In this document: positions 10,367-52,600 of the stretch, in pieces | How positions within the stretch are numbered: the stretch's first letter is position 1 | Layout: each line of letters starts with the position of its first letter | Source: Clostridia bacterium | GTDB taxonomy: Bacteria > Bacillota > Clostridia > JAAYHZ01 | Reading direction: 5' to 3' | Assembly: GCA_050950825.1 (NCBI GenBank) | Contig: JBMNIH010000009.1 | Location: forward strand, 32,001-96,000 | Length of the DNA stretch: 64,000 nucleotides | Made by a program: the position numbers and the translations under genes | Notes under the pieces: model-generated | What the model was told of the DNA's origin: nothing | The model's database searches: none | What the model saw: the letters and a program-made list of their open reading frames with translations, nothing else

Positions 10367-10484
10367 GAACGGCGCATTTCATGCGCCGCCGTTGACAGTC
10401 CCGCCCGTCTTTGCTAAAGGGTAATCAAGGCGGGAAAGCCCTAAAATGGCTTCACACCTATTTCAATAATTGGAGGAGATAAAA

Positions 10485-11351
10485 ATGAGATCAGAAAAGG
10501 AAGTTTATGATATTGTTTTGAATTTTGCAAAAACAGACAAACGCATTCGCATGGTTACTTTGGAAGGATCTAGAACAAATACAAATATTCCGCCTGATGA
10601 TTTTCAGGATTTTGATATTACTTTTTTTGTTACGGATATGGACAGCTTCACAAGTGATGATAAATGGCTAGATATATTTGGTGAAAGGTTGATTCTGCAA
10701 AAGCCGGAAGATATGGAATTATTTCCAGCTGTAGAAAAGGGATTTTCATATTTAATGCTGTTTACTGATGATGTTAAGATAGATTTAACTTTGCTGCCGC
10801 TGGAACTGATAGACGAGTATTTTACATGGGATAAACTGGTAAAGTTACTGTTGGATAAAGACAACCGTATCGTAAAGCCGCCAATACCAACGGATATAGA
10901 CTACCACTTGCAGAAGCCTACTCAAAGAATGTTTGACGATTGCTGTAATGAATTTTGGAATACTACAACATATGTAGTAAAGGGCTTATGCCGCAAAGAA
11001 ATTCTTTTTGCTATTGACCATATGAATGATATAGTACGAAAAGAATTGCTTCGCATGATTTCCTGGCTGATTGGTATCAAACAGGGATTTCATTTCAGTT
11101 TGGGAAAAAACTATAAATTTATGAAGCAATATGTCCCAGAGGAATTGTGGGAACGACTTATGTCCACTTATAATATGGATTCCTATCCCCATATGTGGGA
11201 ATCCTTTGAACAATGTATGGCATTGTTCCGGGAGGTTTCGTCAGAAGTGGCATGCCAGTTGGATTACCAGTATCCACTATATGATGAAAAAATCAGTAAT
11301 TATGTGATTCGGCAAAAGAAAAAATATGGCATTGAAGATGATAACAAATAA
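10485..11351 (+). CDS. aadE: Aminoglycoside 6-adenylyltransferase ANT(6) (streptomycin resistance), 288 aa
   Basis: MRSEKEVYDIVLNFAK, LEGSRTN..PPDDFQDFDI, KIDLTL, DDCCNEFW; GGAGG RBS upstream of ATG 10485. Confidence 0.96.
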   Translation: MRSEKEVYDIVLNFAKTDKRIRMVTLEGSRTNTNIPPDDFQDFDITFFVTDMDSFTSDDKWLDIFGERLILQKPEDMELFPAVEKGFSYLMLFTDDVKIDLTLLPLELIDEYFTWDKLVKLLLDKDNRIVKPPIPTDIDYHLQKPTQRMFDDCCNEFWNTTTYVVKGLCRKEILFAIDHMNDIVRKELLRMISWLIGIKQGFHFSLGKNYKFMKQYVPEELWERLMSTYNMDSYPHMWESFEQCMALFREVSSEVACQLDYQYPLYDEKISNYVIRQKKKYGIEDDNK

Positions 11352-31959: not shown

Positions 31960-32059
31960 ATTTTTGTTAATTGTTTGTAAATTCGTTGACAAATACAAGT
32001 AGTTAGTACTAATATATAAATAAGTAAAAAGCCCGAGTGGAATAGTAGGGAGACGGTTT

Positions 32060-35224: not shown

Positions 35225-36553
35225 ATGGATATGATCGGTTTTCGTATAAAGCCCGAGATGAAATTAGGGGTAGCCGTATCGGCTACCCAAATCGAGGGCG
35301 GTGATCGGAACAACAGCTGGTACGATTGGTATCGGAAAGGGAAAATCAAAGACAACTCGAGTCCGGAAAGGGCCAATCGGCATTACGAGCTTTTTCGTGA
35401 AGACACGGATTTATTAAAAGAAACTTTAATCCAAACCTACCGGTTCGGCATCGAATGGAGCCGAATCGAGCCGAAGCCGGGTGAATTCCGACAAGACGTT
35501 TTGAATCGATATCGTGAAGAGATTTCTTTATTAACGGAAGCGGGTATTCTTCCGCTTTTGACTTTGCATCACTTTACCAATCCTTTATGGTTCGAAGAAA
35601 TGGGCGGCTTTGAGAACCCGGATTCGGTACCGATTTTCTTACGGTTTACGGAAAAAGTCGTCTCTTCTTTCGGTGACTTGGTCAGCGAATACATAACCGT
35701 CAATGAACCGAACGTGTATAGCGTAGGCGGATTCTTTTTCGGCAATTGGCCCCCCGGAAAAAAGTCCTTTCGATCGGTTTTAAAAGTATACCGTCATTTG
35801 ACGGAATGCCATGTTAAAGCCTACGAGCTTATCCACAACATACGAAAAAACAAAGGTTATCACGATACCAAAGTCGGTTTTGCCCACCATATGCGTGTAT
35901 TTGAACCGAAAAATCCGAACAATCCTCTTCATCGGTTGTATGCAAATTGTAGCGAATATCTTTTTCAAGACGTCATTTGCAAAGCTTTTATGACCGGCGT
36001 GTGCGAGTTTCCCTTAAAAAAACCGAAGGATATCAAACCCGGTAAGTATTACGACTTTATCGGTTTGAATTACTACAGCCGAAGCACCGTGTCACGCTTC
36101 GGAGACGGTGTTAAAGGTAATGTACCCGTTAACGATTTGGGTTGGGAAATCTATCCCCAAGGTATCTTGGAATGTGCAAAAAAATTGTATAATCAATATT
36201 CGGCACCCGTTTACATAACCGAGAACGGAACCTGTGACAACGAGGACAAGTTCCGCTCTCGGTTTATTTATGAGCATTTAAAGGTTCTTTGCGAAAGCAA
36301 TCTTCCCGTACATCGATATTACCACTGGTGTTTTCTTGACAACTTCGAATGGCTGGAAGGTGAGAGTGCACGTTTCGGCATTGTTCATGTGGATTTTGAA
36401 ACCCAAAAGCGTACCGTGAAAAAAAGCGGATATTTTTACAGGGAAATTATCCGAAACGGCGGTGTCAGCGAGGAAATGGCACGAGAATGCTTGAACGAAG
36501 AATACAAAATCAACGATCCGAAAGAAAAGATAATAGGCGGAGCATGGTCATGA
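35225..36553 (+). CDS. Glycoside hydrolase family 1 (beta-glycosidase)
   Basis: QIEG, WSRIEP, TLHHF, NEP (acid/base), ITENG (nucleophile), DNFEW. Confidence 0.95.
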   Translation: MDMIGFRIKPEMKLGVAVSATQIEGGDRNNSWYDWYRKGKIKDNSSPERANRHYELFREDTDLLKETLIQTYRFGIEWSRIEPKPGEFRQDVLNRYREEISLLTEAGILPLLTLHHFTNPLWFEEMGGFENPDSVPIFLRFTEKVVSSFGDLVSEYITVNEPNVYSVGGFFFGNWPPGKKSFRSVLKVYRHLTECHVKAYELIHNIRKNKGYHDTKVGFAHHMRVFEPKNPNNPLHRLYANCSEYLFQDVICKAFMTGVCEFPLKKPKDIKPGKYYDFIGLNYYSRSTVSRFGDGVKGNVPVNDLGWEIYPQGILECAKKLYNQYSAPVYITENGTCDNEDKFRSRFIYEHLKVLCESNLPVHRYYHWCFLDNFEWLEGESARFGIVHVDFETQKRTVKKSGYFYREIIRNGGVSEEMARECLNEEYKINDPKEKIIGGAWS

Positions 36554-38172
36554 CGAATTTGTGGTGGCAAGACGCCGTCGTTTATCAAATCTATCCGAAA
36601 AGCTTTAAGGACTCGAATAACGACGGCATCGGAGACATAAAAGGAATCATATCGAAGCCGGACTACTTGAAAGACCTGGGAGTCGATGTTTTATGGCTGT
36701 GCCCCGTATATCGATCTCCGGAAGTCGATAACGGATACGACATCAGCGATTACTTGGACATCAATCCGAAATTCGGTACCATGGAAGATATGGACCGTTT
36801 GATTCGACAAGCCGATCAACGAGGCATGAAAATTATCATGGATTTGGTGATCAACCACACTTCGGATAGGCACCCGTGGTTTTTAGAAAGCAAAGACAAA
36901 ACCGGTCCTTACCGTAATTATTACTATTGGAGGGAAGACGACGGCAAGGGCACCCCGAGCAATTGGACCGGATTTTTCGGCGGAAAAACCCGGAGCAAGG
37001 ATCCGGATACCGGCGATTGGTATTTGCACCTGTTTTCCAAAGAGCAACCGGACTTGAATTGGCACCATCCTGCCGTCATGGAAGAAATCAAGTCCGTAAT
37101 GAAATTTTGGCCGGACAAAGGTATTGCCGGTTTTCGATATGACGTGATCAATGTCATTTGGAAGGATTCCTTGGAAAACGGAAGATTTAAGCTTATCTTG
37201 AAAGGAAGTGAACACTATTTATCTCGGCCGGGAAGCCATGAGATTTTAAAAGCTCTTCGGAAAGACGTACTGAGCCGTTACGATTGCTTTACCGTGGGGG
37301 AGACGGTGTTCATAACCCCCGAAGAAGCAAGAAAATATACATTGCCAGAAAAAAAAGAACCGGATATGATTTTTTACTTCGAGCATATGGAAACGGACCA
37401 AATCCTCGTAAAATGGTTCAAAAGAAAATTCCGTCCCGAAAGATTATTTAAAACGCTGATCAAATGGCAAAAGGAACTGCCGTGGAACGCCAACTACTTG
37501 GAAAATCACGACCGGCCTCGGTCGGTTTCCCGTTTTGGCAATGTCGAAAAATATTGGAGGGAAAGCGCCAAAATGCCGGGCATGCTTCTTATGACTCTTC
37601 GAGGTACCCCCTTTTTATACCAAGGACAAGAATTGGGTATGACCGGGTTCGTTTTTCATTCCATGGAGGATATCAAAGACGTAGAATCCATTCAAATCGA
37701 AGCCTTGGCGAAAAAGCTGCTCATCCCCGAAAAGCTCCGTAAAAAAATCATTTTTTCCACAAGCCGAGACCATGCCCGTACGCCTTTTCAATGGTCCGAC
37801 CAAAAGCATGCCGGTTTTTCCGAAAGCACGCCGTGGATAAAGGTTAACCGTAATTACGTTCGTATCAACCAAGAAAATCAGAGCAAAGACCCGGACTCCG
37901 TTTTGGCTTTTTATAAACGTCTCATCGCTTTTCGTAAAAAATCCACCGCTTTAAAAGAAGGGTCTTTTACGCCCCTGTATTATGACAAAAAGACATTCAT
38001 ATATGAACGAAATCATGAACAAGAATCTTTGCTTGTATTGCTTAATTTCAGCGATAAACCGAGCAAAGTGAAATATGCGGGAGAATGTTTGCTGTCCAAT
38101 TACAACCGTAAAACCTTTGACGGGATGTTACATCCTTGGGAAGGAATTCTATTGTCAACTACTCCTCGGTAG
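36550..38172 (+). CDS. GH13 alpha-glucosidase/oligo-1,6-glucosidase, apparently decaying
   Basis: YQIYPKSF, DNGYD, DLVINHTS, GFRxD, VGE, NHD and ATGA overlap with GH1. Six conserved L/W/Q positions carry P/R. Confidence 0.9.
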   Translation: MTNLWWQDAVVYQIYPKSFKDSNNDGIGDIKGIISKPDYLKDLGVDVLWLCPVYRSPEVDNGYDISDYLDINPKFGTMEDMDRLIRQADQRGMKIIMDLVINHTSDRHPWFLESKDKTGPYRNYYYWREDDGKGTPSNWTGFFGGKTRSKDPDTGDWYLHLFSKEQPDLNWHHPAVMEEIKSVMKFWPDKGIAGFRYDVINVIWKDSLENGRFKLILKGSEHYLSRPGSHEILKALRKDVLSRYDCFTVGETVFITPEEARKYTLPEKKEPDMIFYFEHMETDQILVKWFKRKFRPERLFKTLIKWQKELPWNANYLENHDRPRSVSRFGNVEKYWRESAKMPGMLLMTLRGTPFLYQGQELGMTGFVFHSMEDIKDVESIQIEALAKKLLIPEKLRKKIIFSTSRDHARTPFQWSDQKHAGFSESTPWIKVNRNYVRINQENQSKDPDSVLAFYKRLIAFRKKSTALKEGSFTPLYYDKKTFIYERNHEQESLLVLLNFSDKPSKVKYAGECLLSNYNRKTFDGMLHPWEGILLSTTPR

Positions 38173-38186
38173 TGGAAAGGATCTTT

Positions 38187-39572
38187 ATGGAGAATGAAAA
38201 TTTGACACGAAACAAATATTGCTTCGGATTAGGAACGGTAGGAAGGGATATGCTGTACACGTTGGTCAGCATGTATCTGTTGTTTTATCTTACGGACATA
38301 TTGAATCTGCCGGATTCTACCATGTGGTGGATGACTGCCGTTCTTACGGTCTTGAGAGTTTTTGATGCCGTAAACGATCCCTTTATGGGCGTTTTGGTGG
38401 ACAATACCAAGTCACGCTACGGAAAGTTCAAGCCTTGGATTGCCGTAGGTGCCGTTTTGGCCGGTGTATTTACGGTACTGATGTTTACCGATACGGGAAT
38501 GACCGGCTCTTCCTATATCGTCTTTTTCACCTTCGTTTACTTGACCTGGGATATCGTATACGGTGCCAACGATATCGCTTATTGGTCCATGCTGCCTTCT
38601 TTGACCATCGATTTGAGAGAGCGGGAAAAAATCGGGTCTTTCGCGAAAATATGCGCCAATGTGGGTATGTATATCGTCGTTGTGGCCATTATTCCGGTTA
38701 CGGAAATCTTAAGCCGTTTGACCGGCAGCGCCGTTCAAGGATGGTTTGTTTTCTCGTTGATCGTTGCCGGGTTGCTTTTGCTGTTTCAAAGCTTTACCGT
38801 GTTCGGCGTAAAAGAGATGAAAGGGACATTCAAAGAAGAAGAAAAGACGACTTTACGGGAAATGTTTTCGGTCATCTTTAAAAACGACCAATTGATGGTA
38901 ACCGCCGTAGCCATGGCCTTGTTCATGATCGGATACTGCACGACTACAAGCTTCGGGGTCTACTTTTTCAAGTATGGGTATAAGGATGAATCCATGTATT
39001 CCGTGTTTGCCGGGGTATTGGGCGTATCGCAAATCACCGCATTATCTTTATTCCCCGTCTTCGCCAAAAGGTATAACCGAAAACGGTTGTACACTTTTGC
39101 AACCGCTATGGTTGCGGCAGGCTATATCGTATTTTTCTTTGCTCCGATGAAAATGATCCCCATCGGAATTGCGGGTATTTTGGTGTTTATCGGGGAAGCC
39201 TTCATCTCCATTCTCATGCTGATGTTCTTAACGGATACCATTGAGTACGGCCAATGGAAGTTTCGGAAAAGAAACGAAAGCATCACTTTTTCCATCCAAC
39301 CGTTTATAAATAAAATAGGGGGTGCGATCGCCAACGGGATCGTCGGGATTACGGTGATCATTGCAGGAATCAATAGAGCAGAAACTCCCGAGGACGTAAC
39401 CTCGGAAGGGCTCTTAATCATGAAGCTTGCCATGTTGGTGCTTCCGCTTATTTTTATCGCCGTAGGATATTTCATTTACTTATCTAAATTCAAAATAGAT
39501 GACCGGCTTTTCGAGCAAATCGTAGCCGAATTGAAGCAAAGAGGAGATATTCGCAAGCCCTATTCGGAATAA
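38187..39572 (+). CDS. GPH-family (MelB-like) sugar:cation symporter
   Basis: GTVGRD, DAVNDPFMGVLVDNTKSRYGKFKPW, DTIEYGQWK; multi-TM. Confidence 0.92.
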   Translation: MENENLTRNKYCFGLGTVGRDMLYTLVSMYLLFYLTDILNLPDSTMWWMTAVLTVLRVFDAVNDPFMGVLVDNTKSRYGKFKPWIAVGAVLAGVFTVLMFTDTGMTGSSYIVFFTFVYLTWDIVYGANDIAYWSMLPSLTIDLREREKIGSFAKICANVGMYIVVVAIIPVTEILSRLTGSAVQGWFVFSLIVAGLLLLFQSFTVFGVKEMKGTFKEEEKTTLREMFSVIFKNDQLMVTAVAMALFMIGYCTTTSFGVYFFKYGYKDESMYSVFAGVLGVSQITALSLFPVFAKRYNRKRLYTFATAMVAAGYIVFFFAPMKMIPIGIAGILVFIGEAFISILMLMFLTDTIEYGQWKFRKRNESITFSIQPFINKIGGAIANGIVGITVIIAGINRAETPEDVTSEGLLIMKLAMLVLPLIFIAVGYFIYLSKFKIDDRLFEQIVAELKQRGDIRKPYSE

Positions 39573-49631: not shown

Positions 49632-52600
49632 ATGAGTAATTTTGTGCATCTACATCTACATACGGAATACAGCTTGTTGGACGGAGCGGCAAGAATCAGC
49701 CTTTTGCCGAAAAGAGCAAAGGAGTTGGGCATGAATGCCTTGGCCATGACGGACCACGGTGCCATGTACGGAACCTTGGCTTTTTACAAGCAGTGTAAAA
49801 GCGAGGGAATCAAGCCTATTATCGGATGCGAGGTGTATACCGCAAGAAGAAGCCGATTCGACAAGGATAAGGATGCAGACAGCGATTACGGGCATTTGGT
49901 GCTGCTGGCTGAAAACGATACCGGGTACCATAATTTAATCAAGCTGGTCACTCGGTCTTGGTCGGAAGGCTTCTATTACAAGCCTCGTGTGGACATGGAA
50001 TTATTGCGAGAATACCGTGAAGGCTTGATTGCTTTGAGTGCATGCTTGGCAGGAGATATACCGAGGCTTCTTCTCAACGGCCAATACGAAGATGCGAAAA
50101 AAATGGCGTTGGATTTCCAAGAACTCTACGGGAAAGACCGCTTCTATTTGGAGTTGCAGTACAACGGTCTTACGGAGCAAAACAAGGTCAACGCCCAATT
50201 GATCAAGCTTTCTCAAGAAACCGGTATTCCTTTGGTAGCCACCAACGACGTCCATTACATCAACAGGGAAGACAGCAAAATGCACGATATCCTCATGTGC
50301 ATTCAAACCCAAACCACCGTTCACGATACGGACCGGATGTCCTTTGAAACGGACGAATTCTATTTAAAATCTCCTGAGGAAATGAAATCTCACTTTCCCG
50401 GCGTCCCGGAAGCTATTGAAAATACCGTGAAAATCGCGGATATGTGCAACGTGGAATTGGACTTTTCCAATCGGCATTTACCGGAATACAAGCTTCCGGA
50501 TAACACGGATGCTTATGAATATTTGGAGAAATTGGCCACCGATGGAATGATAAGAAAATACGGTAAAGAGTCTCTTCAGGACGAGAGTATTTACGGCCGT
50601 CTGAAATACGAGCTTTCGGTCATTCGACAAATGGGATACGTAGATTATTTCCTCATTGTCTGGGACTACATCAAATATGCAAGGAGCAACAATATTACCG
50701 TCGGACCCGGAAGAGGCTCCGCGGCCGGGTGCTTGGTATCCTATTGCTTGGATATTATCACCGTGGATCCTTTAAAGCACGATTTGATTTTCGAACGTTT
50801 TTTAAATCCCGAACGGGTGAGCATGCCGGATATCGACAGCGACTTTTCTTCCTTCGGAAGACAGCAGGTAATCGATTATGTCATTCATAAATACGGCCAG
50901 AGCAATGTGGCACAAATTATCACCTTCGGTACCTTAGGCGCCCGTGCCGCTGTTCGGGATGTTGGAAGGGCCATGGGAATTCCCTATTCGAGGGTGGATT
51001 CCGTCGCTAAAATGCTGCCTTCCATGGGTAGACTCTCCATCGAAGAAGCTATCGAGCAAAATCCACTTTTAAAAAAGCTTTATCTTGAGGATATGGAAAT
51101 TCGCGAGCTTTTCGATATGTCCATGCAGGTCGAAGGAATGCCTCGGCATTCGTCGGTTCATGCGTCCGGCATCGTGGTATCGAAGAAATCCATCGATAAT
51201 TACGTTCCTCTGCAGCAAGTAGAAGGAAACATGGTGACCATGTTTACCATGAACGAATTGGAGGAATTAGGACTTTTAAAGATGGACTTTTTGGGCTTAA
51301 AAAACCTGGACGTTATCGACCAAGCGGTAAAAATGATCAAAGCCAATAAGGGAACGGATATCGAATTGGAAAACATCGATATGGAGGATCCTAAGGTATT
51401 TCAATTGATTTCGGAAGGGAATACGTCCGGCTTGTTCCAGATTGAAAGTACGGGTATGACGTCTTTTTTGAAAAACCTGAAGCCGGACAAGCTGGAAGAA
51501 ATCATCGCCGGTATTTCCCTTTATCGCCCGGGTCCCATGGATTCCATCCCCACATATATAGAAAACAGAAAGAATCCTGAAAAAATACAATATCTGCATC
51601 CGAAGCTCAAAGACATTCTTGACGTGACATACGGCTGTATCGTCTACCAAGAGCAGGTCATGCGTATTTGCCGCGATTTGGCGGGATACAGCAGCGGTCG
51701 GGCCGATTTGGTCCGCCGTATCATGTCGAAGAAGAAGCATTCCGACATGATGAAGGAACGGGAAATTTTCATCTACGGCGAAAAGGACGAAAACGGAAAC
51801 GTCATCGTTCCCGGATGTGTCAACAACGGCATACCGGAGGCGATCGCTGCGGAATTGTACGACCGAATGAGTGCTTTTGCCAGCTATGCATTTAACAAGT
51901 CTCATGCCGCCGCTTATGCCTATATCTGTTATCGAGAGGCCTGGCTGAAGTGCTATTATCCGGTCGAATTTTATGCGGCACTGCTAAACAGCTATTTGGA
52001 CAACACGGATAAAATCGCCCAATACGTTTACGAATGTAACAAACAAGAGATTAAAGTGCTGCCTCCCGATATCAACGAGAGCGGATCCGAATTTACCGTT
52101 TCCGGGAAAAATATTCGATTCGGTATGTCCGCCGTTAAAAACGTCAGCACCCAAGCCGTTAAGATGATAATAAAAGAGAGGGAAGAGAACGGCATTTTTA
52201 CGGATTTCATGGACTTTTGCAAAAGAATCAGCAAACACGACGTAAACAAAAAGAGCGTGGAAAATCTGATTCGTTGCGGCGCATTTGATTCCATGGGCGT
52301 TTATCGGTCTCGCTTGCTTAGCGTCTATGAAAAGGTTTTAGACGGGTTCAACCAAGAGAATAAAAGAAACATCGAAGGTCAGCTTCGTTTGTTTGACGAT
52401 ACATCCGGTGAAGCAAAGAAATTGGAGGTTATAAACTATCCAGATATCGACGAATTTGATCCCGCCGTATTGCTGTCCATGGAAAAGGAAATCCTCGGCT
52501 ACTATATCTCCGGCCATCCTATGCTTCAATACCAGGAAAAGCTTTCGGATTTGGTGACTTTCTCCGCCAAGGACAAGTTCGATATCATAAGCGGCATCAA

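Follow-up and report, generated by a model that had tools for sequence, protein, structure and literature searches.

Proline and arginine codons in CCGG replace near-invariant residues of a clostridial GH13 protein in a genome that prefers CGG and CCG

Why should an intact gene of glycoside hydrolase family 13 (GH13) encode proline or arginine where nearly all of its homologues have leucine, tryptophan or glutamine, and why should each of these codons lie in the same word, CCGG? The question is raised by a 64,000-nucleotide stretch of a Clostridia bacterium (assembly GCA_050950825.1, contig JBMNIH010000009.1, forward-strand positions 32,001 to 96,000), the whole of which we call the window, position 1 being its first letter. 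A preliminary description had noted six such replacements and ascribed them to a CCGG- or CGG-directed T:G repair or mutator activity that erodes genes under relaxed selection. Here we show that the replacements are real and that the genome as a whole prefers CGG and CCG, and we propose that a DNA-level, context-specific pressure from T to C probably overrode weak selection in this gene. The genome that holds the window (G000) has 3.55 Mb, 43.7% G+C and a completeness of 97%; it lies in 11 contigs, with the window on contig 9. Runs containing the stretch come from 19 studies and carry the labels bioreactor, biogas-fermenter or anaerobic-digester metagenome, and the host is a widespread biogas-reactor species.

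The gene is the following:

36550..38172, plus strand: intact GH13 open reading frame (ORF), oligo-1,6-glucosidase-like, 540 amino acids; Pfam Alpha-amylase (PF00128), 1.1e-139

The best solved relatives of its protein are the oligo-1,6-glucosidases 9u7v and 1uok, and its GFRYD, VGET and NHD line up with their counterparts in both enzymes (three catalytic acid positions); we take the acids of these motifs to be the catalytic Asp, Glu and Asp. We aligned the protein with 119 homologues, namely the best 120 listed minus the window's own cluster, and compared its codons with those of a sister species (G001). The six altered positions had been placed correctly: the family residue is 99-100% conserved at each of them, 9u7v and 1uok both have L, W, L, L, Q and L in this order, and at every one the window's residue is shared by 0 of the 119 homologues.

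36658..36661, plus strand: CCGG with the CCG codon of P37; L in 119/119 homologues (SK-L-DYL)
36990..36993, plus strand: CCGG with the CGG codon of R148 (36991-36993); W in 119/119 (GGxx-W); G001 has ACC-TGG-AGC
37111..37114, plus strand: CCGG with the CCG codon of P188; L in 100% (FW-L-DKG); G001 has CTG-G
37360..37363, plus strand: CCGG with the CCG codon of P271; L in 99% (E-L-DM)
37512..37515, plus strand: CCGG with the CGG codon of R322 (37513-37515); Q in 99% (NHD-Q-PR); adjoins the third catalytic Asp
37576..37579, plus strand: CCGG with the CCG codon of P343; L in 99% (AKM-L); G001 has CTG-G

Of the 147 columns with a conservation of 98% or more, 8 are altered in the protein, the six CCGG sites among them; its four nearest sister sequences differ at 0, 2, 3 and 2 of the same columns. 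Because the inner base of a CCGG is present in only 23 of the 540 codons, the coincidence of six in eight is beyond chance (binomial P = 1.6e-7). The gene contains 17 CCGG, 1 CTGG and 1 CCAG, as had been counted by hand. However, its CCGG share of 0.895 places it merely in the top 14% of 1112 genes, and the oddity is therefore the placement of CCGG and not the composition of the gene.

The preliminary description had each replacement arise by a single T>C in CTGG on one strand or the other. At the six sites the codons of G001 are, in order, TTA, TGG, CTG, TTG, CAA and CTG, so the single step is direct for three sites only; the three sites with TTA, TTG and CAA in the sister species need an earlier synonymous step before a single T>C (or A>G), and for them the CTGG precursor is assumed. 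A further deviation at an invariant column is of another kind:

37138..37140, plus strand: Y197 (TAT), not of the CCGG type; C in 100% of the 119 homologues (GFR-C-D); beside the catalytic nucleophile

The four leucines changed to proline, the W>R and the Q>R beside the catalytic NHD, together with C197Y beside the nucleophile, suggest damage to the enzyme, and the gene is probably crippled or heading for loss with its frame still whole.

At all six sites the change is a genuine, fixed substitution in the DNA. The 90% cluster of the protein comprises 28 sequences, drawn from contigs of JGI, NCBI and Logan, and 15 of them are listed; all ten full-length listed members have all six proline or arginine residues, and the five partial or frame-shifted ones have them wherever a site is covered in frame, with L, W or Q in none. 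Furthermore, we compared the contigs of four runs, namely X12 (digester DNA of 2025, not flagged as a possible source), X15 and X16 (Illumina metatranscriptome libraries of 2017) and X6 (a possible source run). These contigs, which are consensus sequences in which minor variants are invisible, show two differences overall (36920 and 37747) and zero at the six sites, all of which are spanned by X12 and X16. A metagenome scan gave 6 loci, one of them conspecific (JGI contig L168), which is identical over 3023 bases (0 mismatches). Elsewhere in the protein, V368 (37651-37653) stands where 94% of homologues have D; the cluster members P0128 and P0130 also have D, and this site is thus polymorphic within the species. 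At two further sites P0001, P0126 and P0127 have H and A in common.

The preference behind these sites is seen throughout the genome. In 2712 long ORFs, which cover 87% of the genome, we found TCC-GG 2252 times against 14 for TCT-GG, ACC-GG 2862 times against 36 for ACT-GG, GCC-GG 2276 times against 57 for GCT-GG, and CCC-GG 1536 times against 37 for CCT-GG, so that the share of C in NCY-GG is 0.98-0.99. Across all second-position bases the share of C is 0.62-0.99 before GG and 0.27-0.95 before GA, with a Mantel-Haenszel odds ratio for C over T before GG versus before GA, GC or GT of 9.0. The coding strand shows the mirror image, NCA before G being strongly avoided and NCG favoured (odds ratio 7.2). 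Only 1418 of 39229 proline codons are CCA; lack of tRNA-Pro(UGG) was considered as the cause of this scarcity and rejected, the tRNA being present. Short intergenic DNA (1431 pieces, 215 kb) contains 868 CCGG and 138 CTGG/CCAG, and its share of C before GG is 0.93 after C and 0.56-0.64 after other bases. As the signal appears on both strands (Y before GG as well as CCR) and in intergenic DNA, the effect is largely DNA-level and strand-symmetric, which bears out the expected genome-wide preference: at synonymous sites and in intergenic DNA alike, CGG/CCG is strongly favoured over TGG/CCA and CAG/CTG. Relative to base composition, CCGG (21,108 sites in total) is 2.6-fold over expectation and CTGG/CCAG stands at 0.39; under a third-order Markov model CTGG/CCAG is at 0.65, among the four lowest words, as had been predicted. 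Restriction avoidance of CTGG/CCAG was set aside as a cause, since the effect is at the trinucleotide level, concerns about 10^5 sites and has CGG/CCG as its preferred product; such an enzyme was not searched for.

The direction of change, which the preliminary description had left to a comparison with relatives, could be polarised with 66 orthologues of G000, G001 and G002, a member of the same family that served as outgroup. Where both relatives have T at a synonymous Y before GG, G000 has C at 34 of 36 sites; where both have C, it has T at 7 of 107. At such divergence these sites are saturated, and the counts thus give direction and equilibrium but not rates. A mutation rate of CTGG sites at least 100 times the background would follow only for a neutral gene, and we place no weight on that estimate. 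In proteins, we found 86 CCGG-coded P or R residues of G000 opposite L, W or Q of G001, against 13 in the reverse direction (114k columns). At CGG codons of G000 opposite a relative's Trp, with the GH13 gene excluded, C precedes in 9/12 and 6/6 cases, compared with 20-22% at conserved Arg and about 42% at other non-conserved positions; this excess indicates a CCGG-specific part on top of the CGG/CCG preference. Changes specific to G000 in 18427 three-way columns comprised one L>P, outside CCGG, no W>R and six Q>R, a typical rate far below that of the GH13 gene.

With 6 sites of CCGG-coded P or R, the GH13 gene ranks first in 697 gene-pair comparisons, followed by a histidine kinase with 4 and an SNF2-type helicase with 3, and 588 of the 697 pairs have zero. 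The kinase, a HAMP/HisKA/HATPase protein (G000:C5:80190-81482, minus strand), has Q135R, L265P and W375R, all CCGG-coded and all at sites 99-100% conserved in 119 homologues; they account for three of the four columns of 98% or higher conservation at which it deviates. The same signature in this gene indicates that the phenomenon is not limited to the GH13 gene. In a P-type ATPase-like gene (G000:C11:52542-54524, minus strand) the comparison with G001 gives an L>P (GTA-CCG-GTT) five residues before CPC, plus a CCGG Q>R. The G001 orthologue of the G000 ORF a1331 has a W>R of its own at CCGGC, where G000 has CTGGC and G002 ATGGC, so such a change also happens in the sister lineage.

Two further places in the window serve as contrast:

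10470..11351, plus strand: ANT(6) aminoglycoside adenylyltransferase (aadE), GC 35.5%; 2 CCGG vs 7 CTGG/CCAG
50660..50663, plus strand: CTGG kept at a Trp codon of dnaE (IVWD)

Both had been reported correctly. The ANT(6) gene is consistent with a recent acquisition on which the bias is not yet imposed, and at the dnaE codon, which is under strong selection, T stays. Further gene clusters of low ratio and low GC lie on contigs 7 and 3.

The pressure that we propose would act across the lineage as a T>C change within TGG and CTG, with A>G within CCA and CAG on the complementary strand, and would peak where these contexts overlap, that is, in the change of CTGG/CCAG to CCGG. At free sites it would be near completion; at constrained sites it would win only under weak purifying selection. 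GC-biased gene conversion is known to fix clustered deleterious W>S changes in eukaryotes and has been proposed in bacteria; the pressure would resemble it as a selection-like repair bias that beats weak purifying selection and clusters changes at conserved sites, and would differ from it in that the bias of G000 is motif-specific. For the source of the pressure we offer, as a tentative suggestion only, the correction of T:G mismatches to C:G, tied to methylation of CCGG by an HpaII-type enzyme. Such correction would work on replication errors or recombination heteroduplexes, in the manner of biased gene conversion, and with relaxed recognition (NTGG, CTGN) it would yield TGG>CGG, CTG>CCG and above all CTGG>CCGG; the correcting enzyme would not be a recognisable Vsr.

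The methylase part of this proposal has a candidate. G000 encodes one intact C5 methyltransferase (PF00145, 2.9e-98; G000:C10:25415-26419), in which the usual motifs are readable and which is solitary, that is, without a neighbouring nuclease gene. Among its best 120 listed homologues, nearly all 74-80% identical, 8 also contain an RE_HpaII domain (PF09561) and 1 a Vsr domain within the one predicted protein. The methylase of G000 shares 77% identity with one of the RE_HpaII-joined forms along its entire length, including the recognition part, and on this ground we take it to be of HpaII type with CCGG as its putative target; M.HpaII targets CCGG. Its target-recognition part did not align with solved M.HhaI or M.HaeIII. 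Orthologues are present in G001 (81%, syntenic) and G002 (61%). Far from the methylase, on contig 4, a 59-codon ORF (G000:C4:37452-37571; locus L040 1447-1626) directly after a 406-residue transposase-like ORF has a match to RE_HpaII confined to the final 40 positions of the domain and looks like the remnant of a destroyed HpaII-type restriction gene. The genome resembles an HpaII restriction-modification system in its methylase and in this 40-residue C-terminal relic; it departs from one in having a lone methylase and a destroyed nuclease gene, the specificity being read from homology.

We also surveyed 20 relatives, with 20-40 kb each (more for G001 and G002), for the odds ratio of C before GG. 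Among carriers of a full-length HpaII-like methylase it is 7.1 in G001, 8.1 in G002, 19.6 in G013 and 7.7 in G014. An odds ratio of at least 7 was found in 5/5 genomes with a full-length methylase and in 2/15 others (Fisher P = 0.0014), the cut at 7 having been chosen post hoc, on small samples, and related genomes not being independent. The excess of CCGG over base composition is greatest in family f1, at 2.6-4.25 fold. The link between the bias and CCGG methylation is, on these data, suggestive. At the opposite extreme stands G021 (loci L062 and L063) with 2 CCGG against 171 CTGG/CCAG in 40 kb, or 0.07 of the base-composition expectation, as expected for CCGG restriction avoidance or for unrepaired decay of methyl-C.

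A number of results weigh against a methylation-linked correction, and several of them count at the same time for the strongest alternative, a class-wide preference for CGG/CCG that is unrelated to CCGG methylation, be it a mutational or repair bias or selection on DNA or codon pairs. Under this alternative CCGG is merely the overlap of two favoured trinucleotides, and weakly selected genes lost conserved residues to it. The preliminary description had expected a methyltransferase accompanied by vsr or a T:G glycosylase; the first was found and the second was not recognised. A six-frame hidden Markov model search of G000 (97% complete) gave 0 matches to Vsr (PF03852), DUF559 (PF04480) and MTES_1575 (PF18741), and tblastn of G000 with the Vsr proteins of three relatives gave a best E of 0.09, in a spurious antisense frame. 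Vsr was likewise not found in G001; it is present in G002, G013, G014 and G010. G000 has MutS, and the glycosylases found in it are Nth, MutY, a third HhH-GPD protein and three family-4 uracil-DNA glycosylases (UDGs), none of them named T:G-specific. The three UDG paralogues lie at G000:C2:528701-529919 and C2:277425-278042, two of them in tandem, and the second of the tandem pair is without the N-terminal Cys motif present in the other two. A methylase without very-short-patch repair predicts loss of CCGG, not gain.

Composition adds to this side of the balance. The effect at a synonymous Y before GG is about equal after A, G or T and after C, and the Markov model places CCGG at 0.85 of expectation, not high as had been predicted, for CCG and CGG are themselves enriched 1.32-fold; both observations indicate that much of the signal is a preference for CGG/CCG and is not CCGG-specific. 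The synonymous odds ratio of 9 exceeds the intergenic one of about 2.4-3.4, and part of the effect may thus be translational. In the survey the odds ratio lies near 3 for most of the 20 relatives (between 0.55 and 5.5 in all but G001, G002, G013, G014, G008 and G012), and it reaches 16.0 in G012, a 100% complete genome without a PF00145 or Vsr match, and 10.7 in G008, whose sole methylase sequence is a fragment at the end of a contig. Against G002 the tally of CCGG-coded P or R opposite L, W or Q is 45 versus 35 in reverse (149k columns), a weak asymmetry. The pressure itself may be mutation, conversion or selection on DNA. With the nuclease not found, a bias that does without the 5' C and a biased G012 that has neither methylase nor Vsr, a mechanism of the Vsr type, as first put forward, is not upheld. 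However, a preference unrelated to methylation does not by itself account for the association of high odds ratios with full-length methylases, with the limits given above, nor for the top CCGG excess of family f1, for the C that precedes 15/18 derived CGG codons opposite W, or for the intergenic share of C, higher after C than after any other base. We therefore regard it as a serious possibility that is on the unlikely side.

The premise that selection on the GH13 gene is weak has points of its own against it. Relaxed selection had been part of the first proposal, and here it is something that we infer: the ORF is without stop or frameshift, and at columns at least 90% conserved the protein deviates 26 times and its four sister sequences 15-20 times, which shows no general decay and no excess beyond the six sites. 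Its neighbours are unaffected:

35225..36553, plus strand: GH1 beta-glucosidase, upstream gene of the same operon; syntenic in G001; no radical changes of the CCGG type
38136..39572, plus strand: GPH-family sugar:cation symporter, downstream gene; 83% identity to that of G001; no radical changes of the CCGG type

The order GH1, GH13, symporter is also kept in G001. Such a gene could have changed its function, the six replacements being adaptive or harmless in a new role, as might be read from a frame that is intact, fixed, nearly invariant across samples and present in RNA libraries, from catalytic acid positions that align with solved enzymes, and from a remainder as conserved as in the sisters. 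However, six core changes by one mutational route, all in CCGG, are what a bias predicts and not what adaptation does (the P of 1.6e-7 given above), an unrelated histidine kinase has the same pattern, and C197Y sits beside the nucleophile; we consider a new function improbable.

An artefact, in which T in CTGG was miscalled as C at a methylated motif, might be suspected because an assembly in only 11 contigs suggests long reads and nanopore transition miscalls at methylated motifs are known, but it is hardly credible and was rejected, as cluster members from three sources, the two Illumina RNA libraries, the 2025 DNA run and the JGI contig agree on the letters and 8079 CTGG/CCAG sites are still present in the genome. 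Equally remote is a restoration of the family residues in the cell by recoding or RNA editing of the CCGG-embedded codons: C-to-U editing of the inner C would return Leu or Trp at five of the six sites, but the Q site is not restorable in this way, as the preliminary description had rightly argued, the RNA-library contigs have C at every covered site (consensus sequences, with carry-over of DNA a possibility), the 53 tRNAs have standard anticodons including Pro-CGG, Pro-UGG and Arg-CCG with none odd, and between G000 and G001 the codon CCG stands opposite P 1557 times and L 31 times, and CGG opposite R 382, W 12 and Q 93 times.

The process that we propose is of a kind already known, namely repair-driven bias of oligonucleotides. 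5-Methylcytosine deaminates to T, and Vsr-type enzymes nick the T strand of the resulting T:G so that C is restored; very-short-patch repair in E. coli is held to have depleted CTAG (both as described in the cited parts of PMC12907096 and PMC5337935), and the footprint of Dcm/Vsr on oligonucleotide abundance goes back to Bhagwat & McClelland 1992, as cited in PMC5337935. As with Dcm/Vsr, where T:G correction would deplete words containing T and enrich the methylated word and its 3-of-4 relatives, CTGG, TGG and CTG are low in G000 and CGG/CCG high; unlike there, the site is CCGG and not CCWGG and vsr was not found, and the bias is near-complete at free sites and reaches invariant protein residues, an effect not known to us from E. 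coli, although no literature search was aimed at it. The reaction that the model requires is that of V.NgoAXIV of Neisseria gonorrhoeae, a Vsr endonuclease described in the relevant part of PMC6116569 as cleaving T:G in a CTGG/CCGG substrate; however, it is a PF03852 protein, and members of that family were not found in G000 or G001. Caulobacter has a solitary cytosine methylase, ScmA, with a CCGG-containing motif and an unlinked Vsr-like VsrA (PMC12907096, in the part cited). The solitary C5 methylase is common to both organisms, and in Caulobacter the repair nuclease is encoded elsewhere in the genome; unlike Caulobacter, G000 has no recognisable Vsr-like gene, and in the part of PMC12907096 on which we draw we found no compositional drive for Caulobacter.

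What is distinct in the present case is the CCGG form of the bias, its near-completion at free sites, a conserved solitary methylase without a recognisable Vsr, and at least two intact genes hit at invariant residues. The most specific form of the proposed correction, a Vsr-independent T:G-to-C:G system around the CCGG of the solitary HpaII-type methylase that acts as a motif-specific gene-conversion drive and fixes harmful L>P, W>R and Q>R replacements in invariant positions of genes left otherwise intact, is an unlikely conjunction as it stands. If a bias of repair or mutation is able to alter six invariant residues of an enzyme and spare its frame, intact ORFs in such genomes could not be presumed functional, and DNA repair, not adaptation, would have left some of the substitutions that single out a lineage at conserved sites; CCGG-embedded Pro or Arg codons opposite family-invariant Leu, Trp or Gln might then be flagged in annotation. 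With 21,108 CCGG, a solitary methylase and no recognisable Vsr, the organism would be a natural system for the study of how a cell copes with the deamination of 5-methylcytosine, and it permits one to ask whether motif-specific biased correction may act as a drive in bacterial populations.

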